Source: a bacterium
GTDB lineage: Bacteria; Patescibacteriota; Minisyncoccia; Phycocordibacterales; UBA2100
Direction: 5' to 3'
Assembly (NCBI GenBank): GCA_016789445.1
Contig: JAEUQT010000001.1
Location: 131,603-195,602, forward strand
DNA length: 64,000 bases
Shown: positions 2,697 to 59,645 of the stretch, in pieces
Layout: each line of letters begins with the position of its first letter
Numbering within the stretch: position 1 is the stretch's first letter
Translations under genes and position numbers: made by a program
Notes under the pieces: model-generated
Databases searched by the model: none
What the model was told of the DNA's origin: nothing
Seen by the model: the letters and a program-made list of their open reading frames with translations, nothing else

Positions 2697-4487
2697 CTAG
2701 TTTCCTTCGCGCTTTGCCTTTGCTGCTGCGCTTTCGGTGAGATAGATCTTTCGCAGACGTACGCTCTCAGGAGTGACTTCGAGGTATTCATCCTTCTGCA
2801 TGAGCTCCAATCCGCGCTCGATGGAGAGCTCGTATGCCGGGACGAGATTGATGGCATCGTCGGTACCGGACGAACGCACGTTCGTGAGGTTCTTCCCCTT
2901 CGTCGGATTCACGTACATTTCGTCGCCCTTGGAGGTATCGCCGATGACCTGGCCTTCGTACACTTCGGTTCCCGGCGTGATGAAAAGACGGCCGCGATCC
3001 TGGAGATTCCAGAGCGAGAAGCCCAAGGCTTTTCCGGTCGCCATGGAAACCATCGAGCCCTGTGCACGGCGACGGATCTCTCCCGCGAACGGACGGAAGC
3101 CGATGACGCGTGCCGCGATGATACCCTCACCCTTCGTATCGATGATGAACTGGTTGCGGTAACCGAGAAGACCACGGGTCGGACCTTCGAAGATGAGACG
3201 CACCGTCGCTTCGTGGACGAGCATGTTGGTCATCTGGAAACCACGAGTACCGAGCTTTTCGATGACGGCGCCTTGGTATTCAGACGGGATATCGACGACG
3301 ACTTCTTCGAACGGCTCTTTCTTGACGCCCTCCTCTTCCTTCACGATGACCTGCGGCTGTGAGACCTGCATCTCGAAACCTTCACGGCGCATGTTCTCAA
3401 GGAGGATCGCGATATGGAGTTCGCCGCGACCAGAGACCTGGAAATTATCCGGCGACTGGAAGTCGACTTTGAGACCGACGTTGATCTCGAGCTCCTTCTC
3501 AAGGCGATCACGAAGCTGGCGCGAAGTGACGTACTTACCTTCGCGTCCGCCGAACGGAGAATTGTTGACGAGGAAGCTGAGTGTAATCGTCGGCTGATCG
3601 ACGGCGATTGCCGGAAGCGTCTCGACGTTGGCATCAGTCGTGACGGTCTCGCCGATTTCGATATCAGGCACGCCCGCGATGATGCAGATGTCTCCCGGTC
3701 CGACTTCCGTCGCTTCGACACGCTTGAGGCCCGTGAACGTGAACATCTTAGTGATCTTGCCGCTGCGGGTCTCTCCTGTAGGCTTCTTTACGAAGATGCT
3801 GCCGCCGGTCTTCAAAGTACCTTCGTACACGCGGCAGACCGCGAGGCGGCCGAGGAAGTTGTCGTACGCGAGGTTGAACGGCTGTGCGCGAAGTGCGGAA
3901 TCAGCAGACGCATTGGAGGCTACCGGAACCTTCTCAAGGATCATGTCGAGGAGCGGCGTGAGATCCTTGCGTTCATCATCGAGTTTGCGCATCGCGACAC
4001 CTTCGCGGCCGATGGCATACATGACCGGAAACTCTGCCTGCTCATCGGATGCGCCGAGCTCCAAGAAGAGTTCCAAGACCTGATCTTCTGCGCGAGCCGG
4101 ATCTGCGGCCGGCTTGTCGATCTTATTGAGGACGACGATCGGCTTGAGGCCGAGCTCGAGCGACTTCTTCAAGACGAATCGCGTCTGCGGCATCGGGCCT
4201 TCCTGCGCATCGACGACGAGAAGGACGCTGTCGATGGAGCGGAGCACGCGTTCGACCTCGGAACCGAAGTCAGCGTGGCCCGGCGTGTCAACGATGTTGA
4301 TCTTGGTACCCTTGTATTCCACCGAGGCATTCTTGGCGTAGATGGTGATGCCGCGCTCCTGTTCGAGCTTATTGGAGTCCATGGAAACCCCCTCCTCCGC
4401 TGCCCCGGTCTGCTTCAGGATGGCATCGGTAAGGGTCGTCTTCCCGTGGTCGACGTGGGCGATGATGGCGATGTTGCGGATTTCCAT
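2697..4487 (-). CDS. typA: Translational GTPase TypA/BipA
   Basis: G-domain motifs [17 protein letters not shown] and NKIDK with EF-G-like domains. Start trimmed to [18 protein letters not shown] (ATG at 4485-4487). Confidence 0.9.
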
Positions 4488-4601
4488 AAAAAAGAGGGCG
4501 AGAGGCCCTTGGTTCGACAATACTAACCTAAAACCGTCAAAAATCAAACTTTTCACTTTGGCTAATCGGGTCATTTGTATACAAATGACCCGATTAGGGG
4601 T

Positions 4602-5051
4602 TCAGGAATCCCAGAAATTCCTGCCGGTTTTCAACGCTTCGAAATAGGTCGGGAGCGCAGAGAAGTGCGGCGTCGGGATGTTTTCGATGTCACACCACTG
4701 CCATCCTTCCATCTTCTCTGGCTCCATCACCTTCGGGTCGCCATTCTTCCAGTCGGCAATGAGCCCGATGTCGACGTAGTGCTTTGGCGCATAATCTTTC
4801 AGATTGAGGAGACGGAGGAAGCGGACGTTCTCGATCTCGATCCCGGCTTCTTCCCTGACTTCGCGTTTCGCGCATTCTTCGAACGATTCCATATACTCCA
4901 TGTGTCCGCCGGGCCAGCTCCATTCGCCCGCGCCGTGCGAACTCACGCGCTTCCCCATGAGAACCTTCCCCTCCTTGAATACCATCACACCGACGCCGAC
5001 TTTCGGTCGTGGATTTTCTTCCATAGGGGAAGCATACGGGAAACGGGACAA
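4602..5051 (-). CDS. NUDIX hydrolase
   Basis: Nudix box GGHMEYMESFEECAKREVREEAGI. Confidence 0.8.
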   Translation of the reverse strand: MSRFPYASPMEENPRPKVGVGVMVFKEGKVLMGKRVSSHGAGEWSWPGGHMEYMESFEECAKREVREEAGIEIENVRFLRLLNLKDYAPKHYVDIGLIADWKNGDPKVMEPEKMEGWQWCDIENIPTPHFSALPTYFEALKTGRNFWDS

Positions 5052-5090
5052 AAAGAAACGGCGGCCGCGAAGCGGCCGCCGTACATGTCA

Positions 5091-16502: not shown

Positions 16503-16629
16503 TAACGGCTCGTGTCTCTACACTTTTGAGCCCGCTCTTGATTTCATCAAAGCGAGCGCGGTCTACCTCCCTGAATTCTAGATTGTGAATTTCCATATTA
16601 CATGCGAGTACGCCAGACAAGGATACTTT

Positions 16630-16748
16630 GGAAACCCTCGGTTTTCCAACGGTCGCCGAAGCGACCTGCCTTCCGACACGGGGAACTCCCGTTCCCCGAC
16701 CCCCTCCCTATCCAAGTCTGGCAACAAATCTCGTTGCACTCAATTTGT
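16630..16748 (+). repeat. Family B tRNA-3'-flank element (GAAACCCTCGGTTT ... CTTCCGACACGG ... GC hairpin ... CCGACCCCCTCCC ... inverted copy of tRNA-Gln 3' end)
   Basis: Shares ordered motifs with 21886-21989. It ends in an 18-bp perfect palindrome formed with the tRNA-Gln 3' end (CCAAGTCTGGCAACAAAT / ATTTGTTGCCAGACTTGG). Confidence 0.6.
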
Positions 16749-21800: not shown

Positions 21801-21885
21801 AATGCGGATATCCTACGCGAAAATGCTGGATTTTCAATCTTACGGTCCGGGATTTCACTGCTCGCCGTATTCTCGGCTGCGCTTT

Positions 21886-21989
21886 CGAAACCCTCGGTTT
21901 CGAATAACTTCCGACACGGAGGGGGTCCGGTGGGTCCCCCTCCGACCCTCCCCCGTTCAATCCCGGTCGGGCCTCTCGCTACGCTCGTG
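21886..21989 (+). repeat. Family B tRNA-3'-flank element (second copy) between the two tRNA-Thr genes
   Basis: Ordered motifs shared with 16630-16748: GAAACCCTCGGTTT, CTTCCGACACGG, GC hairpin GAGGGGGTCC...GGTCCCCCTC, CCGACCCTCCCC, then an inverted copy TTCAATCCCGGTCG of the tRNA-Thr(GGT) T-arm. Confidence 0.55.
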
Positions 21990-25666: not shown

Positions 25667-25685
25667 GTTTGAGTGACGGGACTCG

Positions 25686-25902
25686 GTCACAGATATTTCT
25701 TGCGCCGTCGGACAGATTTTTTCGCGACCATAGGCATCGTCTCGGCCAAGAGCTCATTCGTCGCCGTCGCTCCTCATTCCTCTCGGCCCTGATTTTGCGA
25801 CCCCGTCTGCTGACGGGTCCGCCGCAAAATCTTTCGAGTCCCGCCACTCTGCTGAAAAACGCAACAACCCCGACGGCATGCGTCGGGGTTGGCGTTTTGC
25901 GC
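25686..25902 (+). repeat. Family A tRNA-3'-end-associated miniature element, copy 1 (degenerate), at tRNA-Asp
   Basis: Begins GTCACAGATA plus a hairpin. Contains an inverted copy TTCGAGTCCCGCCACTC of the tRNA-Asp T-arm/acceptor and a terminator hairpin CCCCGACGGCATGCGTCGGGG. Flanked by a 15-bp direct repeat GAGTGACGGGACTCG (25671-25685 and 25903-25917) equal to tRNA-Asp nt 56-72. Confidence 0.7.
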
Positions 25903-26352: not shown

Positions 26353-26387
26353 CTCTCTATTCTATCGTAGTGTCGAGGGTGGGGGTC

Positions 26388-26538
26388 GGTCACGAATAAT
26401 TTCTGTCCCGTCGGACAGAAATTTTCGCGACCCCGGCTCGCGGTCTCGCCTGCTGGCGAGACATCGCTCCGCCTTTCGACCCCCACACGCTGTGTGCGCA
26501 GGCACACAGCCCTCGACACAAATCCACTTCGTATATTT
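26388..26538 (+). repeat. Family A element, copy 2 (canonical), at tRNA-Met
   Basis: GTCACGAATAAT; hairpin ATTTCTGTCC-CGTC-GGACAGAAAT; core TTTTCGCGACCCCGGCTCGCG-GTCTCGCC-TGCT-GGCGAGAC-ATCGCTCCGCC. Then an inverted tRNA 3'-half mimic TTCGACCCCCAC[hairpin]CCTCGACAC. Flanked by a 19-bp direct repeat (26369-26387 and 26539-26557) equal to tRNA-Met nt 56-74. Confidence 0.8.
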
Positions 26539-26539
26539 G

Positions 26540-26613
26540 TGTCGAGGGTGGGGGTCGAACCCACGACCTTGGCTTTATGAATGCCACGCTCTAACCAACT
26601 GAGCTACCCCGAC
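26540..26613 (-). tRNA. tRNA-Met (anticodon CAT; elongator Met or lysidine-Ile type)
   Basis: Manual fold: acceptor GTCGGGG/CCTCGAC, anticodon loop TTCATAA, T-arm GTGGGTTCGACCCCCAC. Confidence 0.75.
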
Positions 26614-27164: not shown

Positions 27165-27421
27165 CGCAGGGCGGGCTTGGTCAAGAACATTTCTTGCTTC
27201 CGTCGAAGCAAGAAATTTCTCGGCCCTGATGTTGCGGGGGCGGGCTTGGTCACGGATAATCTTCGCGCCGTCGCGCGAAGATTTCCGCGACCCCGGCTCG
27301 CGGTTTCGCCCACTGGCGAAACATCGCTCCGCCTTGCAAGTCCAGCACGAAAAGCGCACCGGCGCTTTTCTCCCCGCGACTGCACAAACACAAAACCGCC
27401 CGTACGGCGGCTTTGTGTTTG
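27165..27421 (+). repeat. Family A element, copy 3 (canonical) plus a tandem partial unit (27165-27227), at tRNA-fMet
   Basis: Partial unit GGGCGGGCTTGGTCA plus hairpin ATTTCTTGCTTC-CGTC-GAAGCAAGAAAT. Full unit from 27247: GTCACGGATAAT, hairpin ATCTTCGCGC-CGTC-GCGCGAAGAT, core TTTCCGCGACCCCGGCTCGCG-GTTTCGCC-CACT-GGCGAAAC-ATCGCTCCGCC, inverted T-arm mimic TTGCAAGTCCAGC, terminators. Direct repeat TGTTGCGGGGGCGGG (27228-27242 and 27422-27436) equals tRNA-fMet nt 60-75. Confidence 0.8.
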
Positions 27422-27423
27422 CT

Positions 27424-27495
27424 TGTTGCGGGGGCGGGACTTGCACCCGCGACCTCCAGGTTATGAGCCTGGCGAGCTACTACTGCTCCACCCCG
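27424..27495 (-). tRNA. Initiator tRNA-fMet (anticodon CAT)
   Basis: Near-identical to the E. coli tRNA-fMet body (GCGGGGTGGAGCAG ... GCTCATAACC ... GGTCGCGGGTGCAAGTCCCGCCCCCGCAA) with an unpaired 1:72 position (A1/A72), the initiator hallmark. Confidence 0.75.
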
Positions 27496-27539
27496 CTATG
27501 AAGTGCGTAGTATACCTCACGAGGAAGTGTGAGGCAAAT

Positions 27540-34896: not shown

Positions 34897-35388
34897 CTAC
34901 GGCGTTACGCAGAAGCGCGCGGTCGCACCACTGTCAGAGCAGTCGATGCCGCCGATCGGATTGGTATCAACATCGCCCGCAGGAACGGCCGAAGATCCAC
35001 CTTCGATATCAGCACCAATGACATAGCCTGGGCACGCTGGAGACGTTGTCGTACATGCAGTCGTACCGTCTGCCGCGAGCGCTGCATAGCTGTACGGCGC
35101 GAGCGTCGTCGGATCAAGCGGAAGCGCCGAGATGTACTTGCTGGTGACGAGCACCGACGTGGTTGCTGAGGCAAACGCTTCGGTAGCCGTCGGGAAACGC
35201 TGGTTTGCATCGTAGTAAAGCTCAAGCGCCAACTGAAGCTGCTTGATGTCGGAGATACGGCGTGCATCGCGACCCTTCTTACGGGCGCTGTTGAGTGACG
35301 CCAGGACGACCGACGAGAGGATACCGATGATGGCGATCACCACGAGGAGCTCGATGAGGGTGAAGCCGCGCTGAGATCGATTAAACAT
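34897..35388 (-). CDS. Type IV pilin (major pilin candidate, paralog 1)
   Basis: RG/FTLIELLVVIAIIGILSSVVLASL with Glu5; Cys-containing C-terminal domain. Confidence 0.85.
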   Translation of the reverse strand: MFNRSQRGFTLIELLVVIAIIGILSSVVLASLNSARKKGRDARRISDIKQLQLALELYYDANQRFPTATEAFASATTSVLVTSKYISALPLDPTTLAPYSYAALAADGTTACTTTSPACPGYVIGADIEGGSSAVPAGDVDTNPIGGIDCSDSGATARFCVTP

Positions 35389-35425
35389 AGTTATGATTGC
35401 GTTAATCCGCTAATGAATAACAAAC

Positions 35426-35872
35426 TTACGGTTGCTGACAGTACATCGGATCGGTGCAGGTTACGCTACCCACCGTACCGTCGATGTCCTGACTGAGCGC
35501 TGCGTTCGCCGTATCCTCAAGCGTTGCGCCGAGGATGTAGCTCGCACAGACACCGCCGCTTTGCGTACATGCTGCACCCGCGCTCGTAAGGTTATCGAAC
35601 GAGTACGAGCCCGATTGAGGATCTGTCGGCACGACTGAGATGTATGTCGGCGCAAGCTGCGAGAGAGCATCCGGATACTCGCTCGAGTTATTGTCATAAA
35701 AGAGCTCGAGCGCCAACTGAAGCTGCTTGATGTCGGAGATACGGCGTGCATCGCGACCCTTCTTACGGGCGCTGTTGAGTGACGCCAGGACGACCGACGA
35801 GAGGATACCGATGATGGCGATCACCACGAGGAGCTCGATGAGGGTGAAGCCGCGTTCATTTCGTGAAAACAT
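35426..35872 (-). CDS. Type IV pilin (major pilin candidate, paralog 2)
   Basis: N-terminal ~60 aa identical to paralog 1 (about 150 nt perfectly identical DNA); divergent C-terminal domain. Confidence 0.85.
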   Translation of the reverse strand: MFSRNERGFTLIELLVVIAIIGILSSVVLASLNSARKKGRDARRISDIKQLQLALELFYDNNSSEYPDALSQLAPTYISVVPTDPQSGSYSFDNLTSAGAACTQSGGVCASYILGATLEDTANAALSQDIDGTVGSVTCTDPMYCQQP

Positions 35873-35978
35873 AGAATTGTGAATAAACGGTTAAAATTTG
35901 ATCGCTATGCACGCTACGCGCGATGCAATCATCATACGGCACATCACACTCCCCTTGTCGAGTGGGTGTGTATAACCG

Positions 35979-44412: not shown

Positions 44413-44435
44413 AATTGCGGAGAGGGAGGGATTCG

Positions 44436-44582
44436 GTCACGGATAATTTTCTGCTGAAAATTTCCGCGACCCCGCCTCGTCGCCTACGCTCCTGCGACTT
44501 TCGAATCCCTCCGTTTCGCTATGCGAAACCGCCACCCTTTCGGGCGGCGCTCTCCGCAAAAAACTTGCGGGTCTCGTTTTTT
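44436..44582 (+). repeat. Family A element, copy 4 (variant), at tRNA-Ser
   Basis: GTCACGGATAAT; hairpin AATTTTC-TGCT-GAAAATT; TTTCCGCGACCCCGCCTCG; covarying hairpin GTCGC...GCGAC. Inverted tRNA-Ser 3'-half mimic TTCGAATCCCTCC[hairpins]CTCTCCGCAA. Flanked by a 21-bp direct repeat TTGCGGAGAGGGAGGGATTCG (44415-44435 and 44583-44603) equal to tRNA-Ser nt 56-76. Confidence 0.8.
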
Positions 44583-44585
44583 TTG

Positions 44586-50982: not shown

Positions 50983-51148
50983 GTCACGGATAATTCAATG
51001 AGTGTCAATATCGAGTCCCCAGGGATAATTTTGTCGCCGTCGCTCCAAAATTTCCCCGGGCCTGGCTCGCGGTCGCGCGTACTCGCGCGACATCGCTCCG
51101 CCTCGGACCAGTAAACAAAAACAGCGCTCAATGCGCTGTTTTTGATTC
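50983..51148 (+). repeat. Family A element, copy 5 (composite/degenerate), at tRNA-Ile
   Basis: GTCACGGATAAT at 50983, then a second GATAAT at 51023 with hairpin ATTTTGTCGC-CGTC-GC..CAAAAT; core TTTCCCCGGGCCTGGCTCGCG-GTCGCGCG-TACT-CGCGCGAC-ATCGCTCCGCC; partial inverted copy of the tRNA-Ile 3' end (CGGACCAG); terminator AAACAGCGCTCAATGCGCTGTTTTT. No clean direct repeat found. Confidence 0.6.
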
Positions 51149-51225
51149 TGGTCCGCCCTCTTGGATTCGAACCAAGGACCGCAAAGGTATAAGCTTTGTG
51201 CTCTAACCAACTGAGCTAAGGGCGG
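51149..51225 (-). tRNA. tRNA-Ile (anticodon TAT), CCA encoded
   Basis: Manual fold: acceptor CCGCCCT/AGGGCGG, anticodon stem CAAAG/CTTTG with loop CTTATAC, T-arm CTTGGTTCGAATCCAAG, discriminator A, then CCA. Confidence 0.7.
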
Positions 51226-56346: not shown

Positions 56347-56730
56347 GGGGATGATTGGCTTCGACAGGGAGATCGATGCATATACATGCATGGCGGAAGT
56401 GGGTATCTTCCCAAAAACACCCAAACTCTAAGTGCAAACAAAACTGCACGGGGGGTTCTCTCGCCTATTCAGGTGAAGGACCTCGGCTTTGCTTTCGCGT
56501 AAGCCAAGGCAACCGTTCGTTCAGAGGTCTCCAATACTCTGATGCGAGCGTCATATCATTGGATACGGCTTCCCTATCACACCGTAGGTTAGTCTAAAGA
56601 AAGAGTGTCCGACGCGAAGCGATCTTGTGCGTTCCATACTCTCCGCGTTCAAAACCTTTGAACGCCCTACGCCTTGTAGATGTGTGTATGCGTTTCTCTT
56701 TGCACCGCGGTTCGATTCCGCGCATCTCCA
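56347..56730 (+). ncRNA. ssrA: tmRNA (ssrA), standard one-piece
   Basis: Directly downstream of smpB. 5' end GGGGATGATTGGCTTCGACAGGG matches the tmRNA 5' consensus. The acceptor stem GGGGATG/CATCTCC has a G3-U wobble (Ala identity). 3' T-arm CGCGGTTCGATTCCGCG plus discriminator A. Candidate tag frame from GCA 56434 to TAA 56500-56502 (...VKDLGFAFA). Terminator hairpin GCAAGCCGCC...GGCGGCTTTTGC at 56739-56766. Confidence 0.8.
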
Positions 56731-56743
56731 CAGCCAATGCAAG

Positions 56744-56912
56744 CCGCCTTCCAGGCGGCTTTTGCATTTGCATTGCGACGGTGGAGATGAAGAAAGCGCC
56801 TGCGCGCTTTCTGCGGGGGTCTCGAAAGGCGGAGCGCTGTTCCGACAGCAGGCGGAACCGCGAGCCGGGGTCGCGGAAATTCAAAGGCGACGGCGTTTGA
56901 ATTATCTGTGAC
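56744..56912 (-). repeat. Family A element, copy 7 (inverted orientation), at tmRNA gene 3' end
   Basis: Reverse complement reads GTCACAGATAAT, hairpin (TTCAAACGCC-GTC-GCCTTTGAA), TTTCCGCGACCCCGGCTCGCG-GTTCCG-CCTGCTGT-CGGAAC-AGCGCTCCGCC, T-arm-like TTTCGAGACCCCCGC, a hairpin, then TCATCTCCAC (copy of the tmRNA 3' acceptor strand). Direct repeat CGATTCCGC (56713-56721 and 56913-56921) equals the tmRNA T-loop from nt 56. Confidence 0.75.
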
Positions 56913-56972
56913 CGATTCCGCCGCCGATATTCCTTCATGCAACCTTATGTGTTTTGATACGTCCACTGAGAT

Positions 56973-59556: not shown

Positions 59557-59576
59557 AGGCCATGTACGTCCGGACT

Positions 59577-59645
59577 GTCACGGATAATTTTCTGCTGAAA
59601 ATTTCCGCAACCCCGCCTCGACACCTAAAGTGTCTCCGGCCTTGC
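59577..59645 (+). repeat. Family A element, copy 6 (orphan partial copy, no adjacent tRNA)
   Basis: GTCACGGATAATTTTCTGCTGAAAATTTCCGCAACCCCGCCTCGACACCTAAAGTGTC, nearly identical to the first 60 nt of copy 4. Lies in the intergenic gap between the dinB start and the mazF-like gene. Confidence 0.65.

Follow-up and report, generated by a model that had tools for sequence, protein, structure and literature searches.

A small structured non-coding element, family A, at the 3' ends of tmRNA, tRNA and other genes in Patescibacteria

The stretch that follows the tmRNA gene (ssrA) in the window, by which the whole 64,000-nucleotide stretch of DNA analysed here is meant, belongs to a family of small non-coding insertion elements, designated family A, and is a genuine copy with slight decay. 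In gene direction every copy in the window has the same order: the 3' segment of the host gene that is repeated (S1), the trailer or terminator, a segment antisense to the gene end (AS), a conserved core, and a direct repeat of the gene end (S2). All window copies lie on the strand of the preceding gene, and their AS and S2 are matched to their own tRNA. In our judgement the chances are even that family A consists of non-autonomous, non-coding elements which insert at gene 3' ends and are mobilised in trans via a folded single-stranded core. Full-text literature searches returned no description of the element, and the family is apparently undescribed. If it is mobile, Parcubacteria, with their streamlined genomes, harbour a class of genome parasite or symbiont that is very abundant and has escaped notice until now, which bears on how tRNA genes turn into integration hotspots.

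The copy at ssrA and its relatives in the window

ARAGORN places the tmRNA at 56347-56731 on the forward strand with the tag peptide ANKTARGVLSPIQVKDLGFAFA (followed by a stop), and Rfam model RF00023 matches it with 112.3 bits against a gathering score of 47 over model positions 1-374, the full length. Together they give a host gene at 56347-56733 (+). The original prediction, which had made its interpretation depend on a tmRNA fold, thus called the gene correctly. SmpB, encoded beside it, is 88% identical to a Candidatus Kaiserbacteria protein. In Rfam 15 only the tmRNA and the tRNAs of the window reach gathering scores, and between 56700 and 56960 nothing relevant (ribozymes, omega-RNAs, sRNAs) was found at E values up to 10.

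The repeated target segment S1 of ssrA, CGATTCCGCGCATCTCCAC, extends from T-loop position C56 to the 3' end (56713-56731, +), in the register also seen in tRNA-linked copies. The trailer and an intrinsic-terminator hairpin (GCCGCC/GGCGGC with a T-run, 56736-56768, +) were located by terminator scan and in the sequence, and AATGCAA/TTGCATT extends this hairpin. The element had been predicted to start at 56744, after the terminator; it does follow the terminator, but 56744 lies inside the hairpin, and the element proper begins at about 56769. Its first part, AS' (56769-56789, +), is a complement of the trailer that leads into AS_acc (56780-56789, +), GGTGGAGATG. Relatives have a CCA-encoding ssrA allele, CATCTCCACC, of which AS_acc is the exact complement in 10 of 10 positions. 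At the boundary of acceptor and T-stem, AS is split by a hairpin (56791-56812, +) whose loop is CUGC and which recurs in other copies. Beyond it lies AS_T (56813-56826, +), a decayed complement of the 3' half of the T-arm that ends ..TCGAA and has drifted so far that about 10 of 14 positions match.

The core, a conserved three-way junction of 91 nt at 56823-56913 (+), is defined by covariance model, covariation and minimum free energy (MFE) fold. Its helices are P2 (56828-30/56864-66), the hairpin P3 (56834-56861), P4 (56869-76/56906-13) and P5 (56877-56905) with a GACG loop. The family A covariance model (R1) matches here with 100.9 bits (E 2e-22, model positions 1-91), as against 14.5 bits on the opposite strand, and the MFE fold gives the same junction with z = -4.0. 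The core starts 92 nt past the tmRNA end on the same strand, within the limit of less than 300 nt downstream that was applied to co-oriented copies. As in the family at large, it is made up of P2/P3 and P4/P5, ends in ..AUYYGUGAC, and has the host 3' repeat after GUGAC and its complement upstream.

Directly after the core end ...AUCUGUGAC stands CGATTCCGC (56913-56921), which equals tmRNA 56713-56721 from T-loop C56 onwards; by chance, 9 nt would agree at one given register with a probability of about 4e-6. With the next residue, a C, the repeat forms S2 (56913-56922, +), CGATTCCGCC, which agrees in 10 of 10 positions with the ssrA allele of relatives and in 9 of 10 with the window's own S1. 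Because the acceptor-strand part is missing, S2 of this copy is truncated. Both the family A copy at the ssrA 3' end and the T-loop duplication had been predicted, and both are borne out.

The insert of about 180 nt is without an ORF. It had been described as filling the whole spacer between ssrA and the GH13 gene, which does not hold: the terminator precedes it, and at 56928-56972 the spacer closes with about 45 nt of conserved sequence belonging to the region upstream of GH13, which is kept in element-less relatives and ends at the GH13 start codon (56973). Positions 56793-56926 give inverted matches to the copies after both tRNA-Met genes of the window. The orientation had been called inverted, which is true relative to the window strand; the copy is nevertheless co-oriented with its own upstream gene like the others, and it looks inverted because ssrA is the sole RNA gene on the forward strand.

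Repeat finding and a covariance model built for this analysis located the family A set of the window, which comprises copies after five tRNA genes, the tmRNA copy, one tRNA-less copy and two partial copies. All except the tmRNA copy are on the reverse strand. The tRNA-Met gene at 27425-27497 is followed by a copy at 27231-27424 (109.5 bits) and a second, partial one at 27179-27236 (24.2 bits). The copy after the other tRNA-Met gene (26539-26613) lies at 26370-26538 and has an exact 19-nt S2, as has the copy with a short core after tRNA-Ser (44417-44584). Nested or decayed copies follow tRNA-Asp (25671-25898). The copy after tRNA-Ile(UAU) (50983-51148, 86.6 bits) has a truncated AS and a duplicated piece of the 3' end, and the copy at 59576-59645, upstream of dinB and between it and a 161-aa ORF, has no adjacent tRNA and is absent in locus L128 (L numbers denote loci sampled from other genomes). 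The tRNA-Ile(UAU) gene itself (51149-51225, -) is also present in L127 and L128, which suggests decoding of AUA without a lysidine-modified CAU tRNA.

A second element type, family B, follows tRNA-Gln (16608-16746, -) and tRNA-Thr(GGU) (21843-21988, -). It is arranged by the same logic, with the antisense of the tRNA end, a different core and a sense repeat; its core reads GGGGUCGGGG, hairpin, CCGUGUCGGAAG, hairpin, GAAACCGAGGGUUUC..GCGAGCAGUG. A scan with the exact pattern found 66 metagenome loci (L137-L202), 33 of them with a co-oriented tRNA upstream, and nothing in the family A loci. Family B copies were likewise seen at rplL in L198 and at a small basic ORF in L187. The motif GGGGUCG...CCGUG(A/U)C is common to both families, one or the other of which is carried by eight of the nine tRNA and tmRNA genes in the window.

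Fold, targets and distribution of family A

The structure of the core was assessed in an alignment of 53 sequences. It has two domains, a P2 of 3 bp that closes the bulged hairpin P3, and the long hairpin P4/P5 with a bulged A, and the hand-drawn structure agrees with an independent RNAalifold prediction. Paired cells amount to 91%, compared with 76% in column shuffles and 30-45% with slid partners, and in 21 pairs both partners vary. P2 has as its middle pair CG in 18, GC in 17, AU in 16 and UA in 2 sequences. G55:U91 is invariant, the pair 57:89 is GU in 35, GC in 13 and AU in 5 sequences, and elsewhere G.U outnumbers A.C by 33 to 9. The opposite strand of copies scores 14-26 bits against about 100 bits on the sense strand. 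The G.U tolerance together with these weak opposite-strand scores argues that the functional form is the sense strand, as RNA or as single-stranded DNA.

AS and S2 can form a further helix, P1, which has one exact register at the junction and stacks on P4. At this register at least 6 bp are formed in 33% of the copies, as against 3.9% in a null in which AS and S2 were taken from different copies; other offsets give 0-1%. Alternatively, AS can pair with S1 and the trailer. A chance repeat is ruled out by this excess over the null, by the 100.9-bit match at ssrA, and by shuffles, which yielded no match to the core pattern compared with four in the window.

Two registers are used at tRNA genes. 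In the first, S starts at C56 and extends over 19-21 nt to the 3' end; in the second it starts at C72 and extends over 6-8 nt into the trailer, and the terminator loop is often CUGC. The duplication register from T-loop nucleotide 56, which was to be checked for conservation, is shared by one class, to which the tmRNA copy belongs, whereas the second class uses C72. In about half of the copies linked to a tRNA, a terminator separates the gene from the core. Protein genes are targets as well. At rplL, S comprises the last 18 nt including the stop codon, and at a topA-like gene in four genomes it comprises the last 75 nt or so, with AS pairing with its first 10 nt or so and S2 forming a diverged duplicate of the C-terminal codons. 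The differences between S1 and S2 at topA are not adenine-specific, so that a template/variable repeat of the DGR type was rejected. Further hosts are a small basic ORF, other ORF 3' ends and some intergenic sites. In the ORF targets the full reading frame is retained through S1. Element size is about 70-190 nt, and S measures 6-21 nt, or up to about 75 nt in ORFs. A recognisable S1-S2 repeat is present in 39 of 137 copies, with S1 within a few hundred nt of S2.

The original prediction had concluded that targeting recognises the tRNA-like domain of tmRNA. The same element at the 3' ends of rplL, the topA-like gene and the small basic ORF, along with the two tRNA registers, contradicts recognition of tRNA shape and indicates that matching follows the local sequence.

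The exact core pattern was found in at least 120 loci of a species-representative genome collection, almost all labelled as Patescibacteria/Parcubacteria lineages, and the covariance model gives 141 matches in 713 kb, located in 100 of the loci listed. Of the 191 tRNA and tmRNA genes in the sampled loci, 98, across nearly all isoacceptors, have a co-oriented copy less than 300 nt downstream. A copy follows the tmRNA in six other genomes. The covariance model is of use for annotating intergenic regions of Patescibacteria, and it accounts for many pseudo-hits to tRNA 3' fragments. The core had no match on 2.9 million viral contigs, by which a phage- or plasmid-borne attP was rejected. Copies of the same genome were mutual nearest relatives in 0 of 28 cases, so there is no sign of recent intragenomic bursts; nearest-neighbour copies sit at different tRNAs, which speaks against target-specific lineages. 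Among 124 neighbouring ORFs from one of three batches, no enrichment of recombinase, transposase or reverse transcriptase (RT) genes was seen, and the common Pfam families were all housekeeping, so that no linked protein gene could be assigned. No autonomous copy was found in the loci examined, nor any kb-sized S1/S2 version in the 8-kb loci, including those of copies without a nearby tRNA.

Some copies deviate from the usual layout. Two (L053 4109-4330 and L056 999-1201) are convergent with the 3' end of a 5S rRNA gene about 30-50 nt away and are an exception to co-orientation; their left part, GGGUGAGAAGCGAAUACUUGGAGCUUCGCAAG, is conserved between them and has the appearance of an insertion into the P4 of an earlier copy. 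In L205 (3930-4200), AS and two S repeats of a canonical copy match tRNA-Asp, although ARAGORN detects no such tRNA there; its gene may have been lost or moved, or may contain an intron.

Filled and empty sites in relatives

Two of the window sites are empty in relatives. In L204 the tRNA-Met 3' end is the same over the 30 nt that precede the end of the contig, and it is directly joined to the downstream flank and an orthologous small ORF; the window has an extra 144 nt and a second 19-nt S at this site (tRNA-Met at 26539-26613). In L206 an identical tRNA-Ser is directly followed by AAATTC, compared with the element and a second S before AATTC in the window. In both pairs the filled allele consists of the empty allele, an insert X and an additional S of 19-21 nt. 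Either pair is explained equally well by an insertion and by a precise deletion through S1/S2. The tRNA-Asp copy is kept in several relatives. Tandem or nested copies occur at tRNA-Met and tRNA-Asp of the window and in L046 and L007.

Comparison of the ssrA 3' flank, which had been proposed as a check, showed that the spacer to GH13 is hypervariable among near relatives. Loci with the same ssrA allele as the window carry either the element (L133, L134) or different islands right after ssrA (L135, L136). In slightly more distant relatives the spacer holds a small ORF (L121, L129) or a GIY-YIG-type gene (L123), and in all of them it resumes at the same GH13 upstream sequence. The view of ssrA as an insertion hotspot is thereby supported. 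The ssrA allele of L121 and L129 is preserved in the window's S2, CGATTCCGCC, and in AS_acc, the complement of CATCTCCACC. The functional ssrA of the window now reads CCGCG in its T-stem and, at the 3' end, ..CCACAG.

The islands of the strain-level relatives L135 and L136 are two different ones at the same point. In each, a gene for a large serine recombinase of 532-545 aa with Resolvase, Recombinase and Zn_ribbon_recom domains starts right after the tmRNA end ..CATCTCCAC. The small ORF in the ssrA-GH13 spacer of L123/L128 (about 4283-4549), a relative with a 92% identical SmpB, is, by eye, of the GIY-YIG type; the small ORFs of L121 and L129 share a hairpin in front. In L003 (5630-6700) the tmRNA is followed in turn by the element, S2, a cassette of 620 nt, an S that is degenerate, a further copy of the element and S3. 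The cassette contains an ORF for a small membrane protein on the opposite strand, the flanking element copies differ at one base, and the layout resembles an integron-like cassette.

Proposed mobilisation in trans and competing explanations

The analysis shows the anatomy of the elements, their covariation and strand specificity, their distribution, the presence/absence polymorphism with a duplicated S, the preserved host gene and the lack of a linked ORF. We infer mobilisation in trans through a single-stranded intermediate, with a recombination chemistry of the following kind. The core, folded and single-stranded (RNA or sense-strand DNA), would serve as the recognition site of an enzyme encoded elsewhere and be joined to a target whose sequence is that of the S:AS helix. 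The gene would keep an intact 3' end (S1), and the other copy would be left downstream (S2). Formally this would be equivalent to the Campbell integration of a small circle composed of S, cargo, AS and core, in which S of the element recombines with S of the gene; alternatively, the cuts may be defined by the AS:S duplex. A pure Campbell model covers only the spread between identical targets. The terminator found between gene and core in about half of the tRNA-linked copies weakens a model based purely on read-through RNA. The copy at ssrA would be old enough for S2 to have lost its acceptor part and for AS_T to have drifted.

Folded single-stranded recombination sites are known from the CTX phage, whose attP(+) is used by XerCD, and from integrons as attC. 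Like these, family A has an inverted site copy, a spacer of about 70-90 nt and a direct copy beside the junction, along with strand-specific conservation, hairpins with bulged bases and, in L003, a cassette between two copies. Unlike them, its stem varies with every target instead of being a fixed dif or R-box, and the spacer itself is conserved and structured. A CTX-type IMEX depending on XerCD was rejected, as the AS:S stem differs at every locus and there are no dif-like XerC/XerD sites. The same applies to an integron attC: the consensus ends ..GUGAC, there is no R-box/GTTRRRY, and the cassette-like case of L003 is the only one. MITEs and REP/REPIN sequences are small, non-coding, multi-copy, extragenic and hairpin-forming, and often lie beside terminators. 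Family A shares these features and, like them, presumably depends on an enzyme encoded elsewhere. However, its terminal inverted repeats (AS and S2) differ per copy and correspond to the flanking gene, the duplication is gene-specific and 6-21 nt or more in length, and the orientation to the upstream gene is strict. A MITE was therefore dismissed; constant terminal inverted repeats are lacking, no transposase is present among the neighbouring ORFs, and no related autonomous IS or RAYT gene was seen.

The strong structural conservation could equally fit an RNA that is useful to the host, and such a cis-acting module, with a role in 3'-end processing, termination, insulation or RNA stability, is a serious rival, even if we hold it to be rather unlikely. 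Read-through from a highly expressed gene would produce the RNA, AS would toggle between S1 plus trailer (a long processing or terminator stem) and S2 (P1), and a protein would attach to the core. Where a copy is linked to a tRNA, its P1/P4 end resembles an acceptor end (helix, N73-C74), so that RNase P/Z and the CCA enzyme could trim it. The RNA-type covariation with its G.U tolerance on the sense strand agrees with this explanation, as do the strict co-orientation with the upstream gene, the high expression of the hosts (tRNA, tmRNA, rplL, small basic ORF), the retention of the tRNA-Asp copy in several relatives, and the start of S2 at C72-A73-C74 or from C56 onwards in register with P4. It accounts less well for presence and absence varying among relatives with identical tRNAs, for copies that decay and nest, for the half of the copies that stand behind a terminator, for copies at ORF 3' ends and intergenic sites without a tRNA-like end, and for the roughly half of the tRNA genes in the loci that have no copy.

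A more far-reaching version of the preferred explanation, in which families A and B would supply the cis parts of an integration system that is programmable and guided by nucleic acid, is speculative, and we rate it about as improbable as the host module. The core would recruit a Parcubacterial enzyme, the AS/S helix would specify almost any gene 3' end, through base-pairing or sequence identity, and the displaced end would be regenerated. A conserved core combined with antisense and sense copies of the target implies a matching to arbitrary targets while the entered gene is repaired. If this reading were true, the elements would be a natural, retargetable 'guide plus scaffold' that is distinct from CRISPR-associated transposons, bridge RNAs and group II introns, and if a guide mechanism is involved, they could provide a compact programmable insertion tool.

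Mobile elements guided by nucleic acids include group IIC introns, IS200/IS605 elements with guide tetranucleotides and IS110 elements with bridge RNAs. Family A shares with them an internal segment complementary to the flanking target, the position of many copies just after intrinsic terminators and an RNA-like core; it differs in that the target is duplicated, with sense and antisense covering the same segment, in the lack of an ORF, and in being too small for an intron. It is distinctly unlikely, in our estimate, that family A is a guide-directed transposon or retroelement in which AS is paired to the target strand and S becomes an unusually long target-site duplication through cleavage at either end of the AS:S duplex, with a read-through RNA as the intermediate in a target-primed-like mechanism. 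In the two tRNA classes S length does track AS length (6-8 and 19-21 nt), the filled allele is the empty one plus X and one S, and the elements are in sense orientation behind strong promoters. Yet AS pairs with only about 10 nt at the topA-like gene, where S has about 75 nt, and no RT or nuclease gene is linked among the 124 neighbouring ORFs. AS also matches the genomic trailer and not CCA, which means that the mature tRNA is not the primer; a retroviral-type primer-binding site was rejected because AS runs into the complement of the genomic trailer (AAAT/ATTT, A6/T6) and not into TGG. A group II intron, class C included, was excluded by the lack of a domain V/VI match (RF00029) at E up to 10 and a size below 400 nt. 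What resembles the 5' GUGYG of such introns is GUGC, the complement of a tRNA end ..GCAC, and it varies with the tRNA (e.g. AUGAC for ..GUCAU). A survey moreover reports no group II introns in Patescibacteria (PMC13011429). The group I intron described at position 35/36 of Patescibacteria tRNAs differs from family A in position and size (PMC13011429). TIGR-Tas arrays are tandem dual-spacer units of about 36 nt beside a gene with a Nop domain, whereas family A consists of solitary units of 70-190 nt, with no such family among those common to the neighbouring ORFs (PMC12045711).

One further explanation is that the elements are deletion scars (attL/attR remnants) of integrase-borne islands once present in these genes. 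Tyrosine integrases, as Williams is said to have described in 2002, target the 3' ends of tRNA and tmRNA genes, with sublocations at the anticodon loop, the T-loop and the 3' end. As with such islands and prophages, family A is flanked by a direct repeat of the 3' part of the gene (starting at the T-loop or the 3' end), the classical island signature; the gene is left intact, ssrA is a hotspot, and one site can take up several insertions in succession. The T-loop, the 3' end and the anticodon loop all occur as registers, and recombinase islands are present at ssrA in relatives. Unlike integrase islands, the insert is only about 150 nt long and has no integrase, ORF or kb-sized cargo, one conserved core serves dozens of targets including ORF ends, and an antisense target copy accompanies a covarying folded core with no conserved recombinase half-site beside S. 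We consider the scar explanation highly improbable, as S1 and S2 are close in the 39 of 137 copies where they are recognisable, the 8-kb loci contain no kb-sized version, integrase arm sites lack the RNA-like covariation of the core, the core is absent from viral contigs, and the islands at ssrA carry serine recombinases, which are not known to make long repeats.

Further duplications were observed at tRNA genes that have no family A core. In L128 (about 4780-4860), tRNA-Ile(UAU) is followed by 43 nt with a P5-like remnant and by an old 3' half from the anticodon loop, which is identical to the allele of L127. In L203 (about 4990-5090), tRNA-Met is followed after 12 nt by a copy of about 60 nt of a different tRNA-Met allele. 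At tRNA-Ser(GCU) in L206 (2260-2440) and L208 the 3' side is empty, and a second copy of the initial 18 nt of the tRNA, GGAGAGGCGGCCGAGTGG, stands upstream of a non-coding insert of about 170 nt in D-loop position, which may be a 5'-side counterpart element. Finally, the window contains a direct repeat of 181 nt with 93% identity at 35210-35390 and 35694-35874, the two copies being 484 nt apart.
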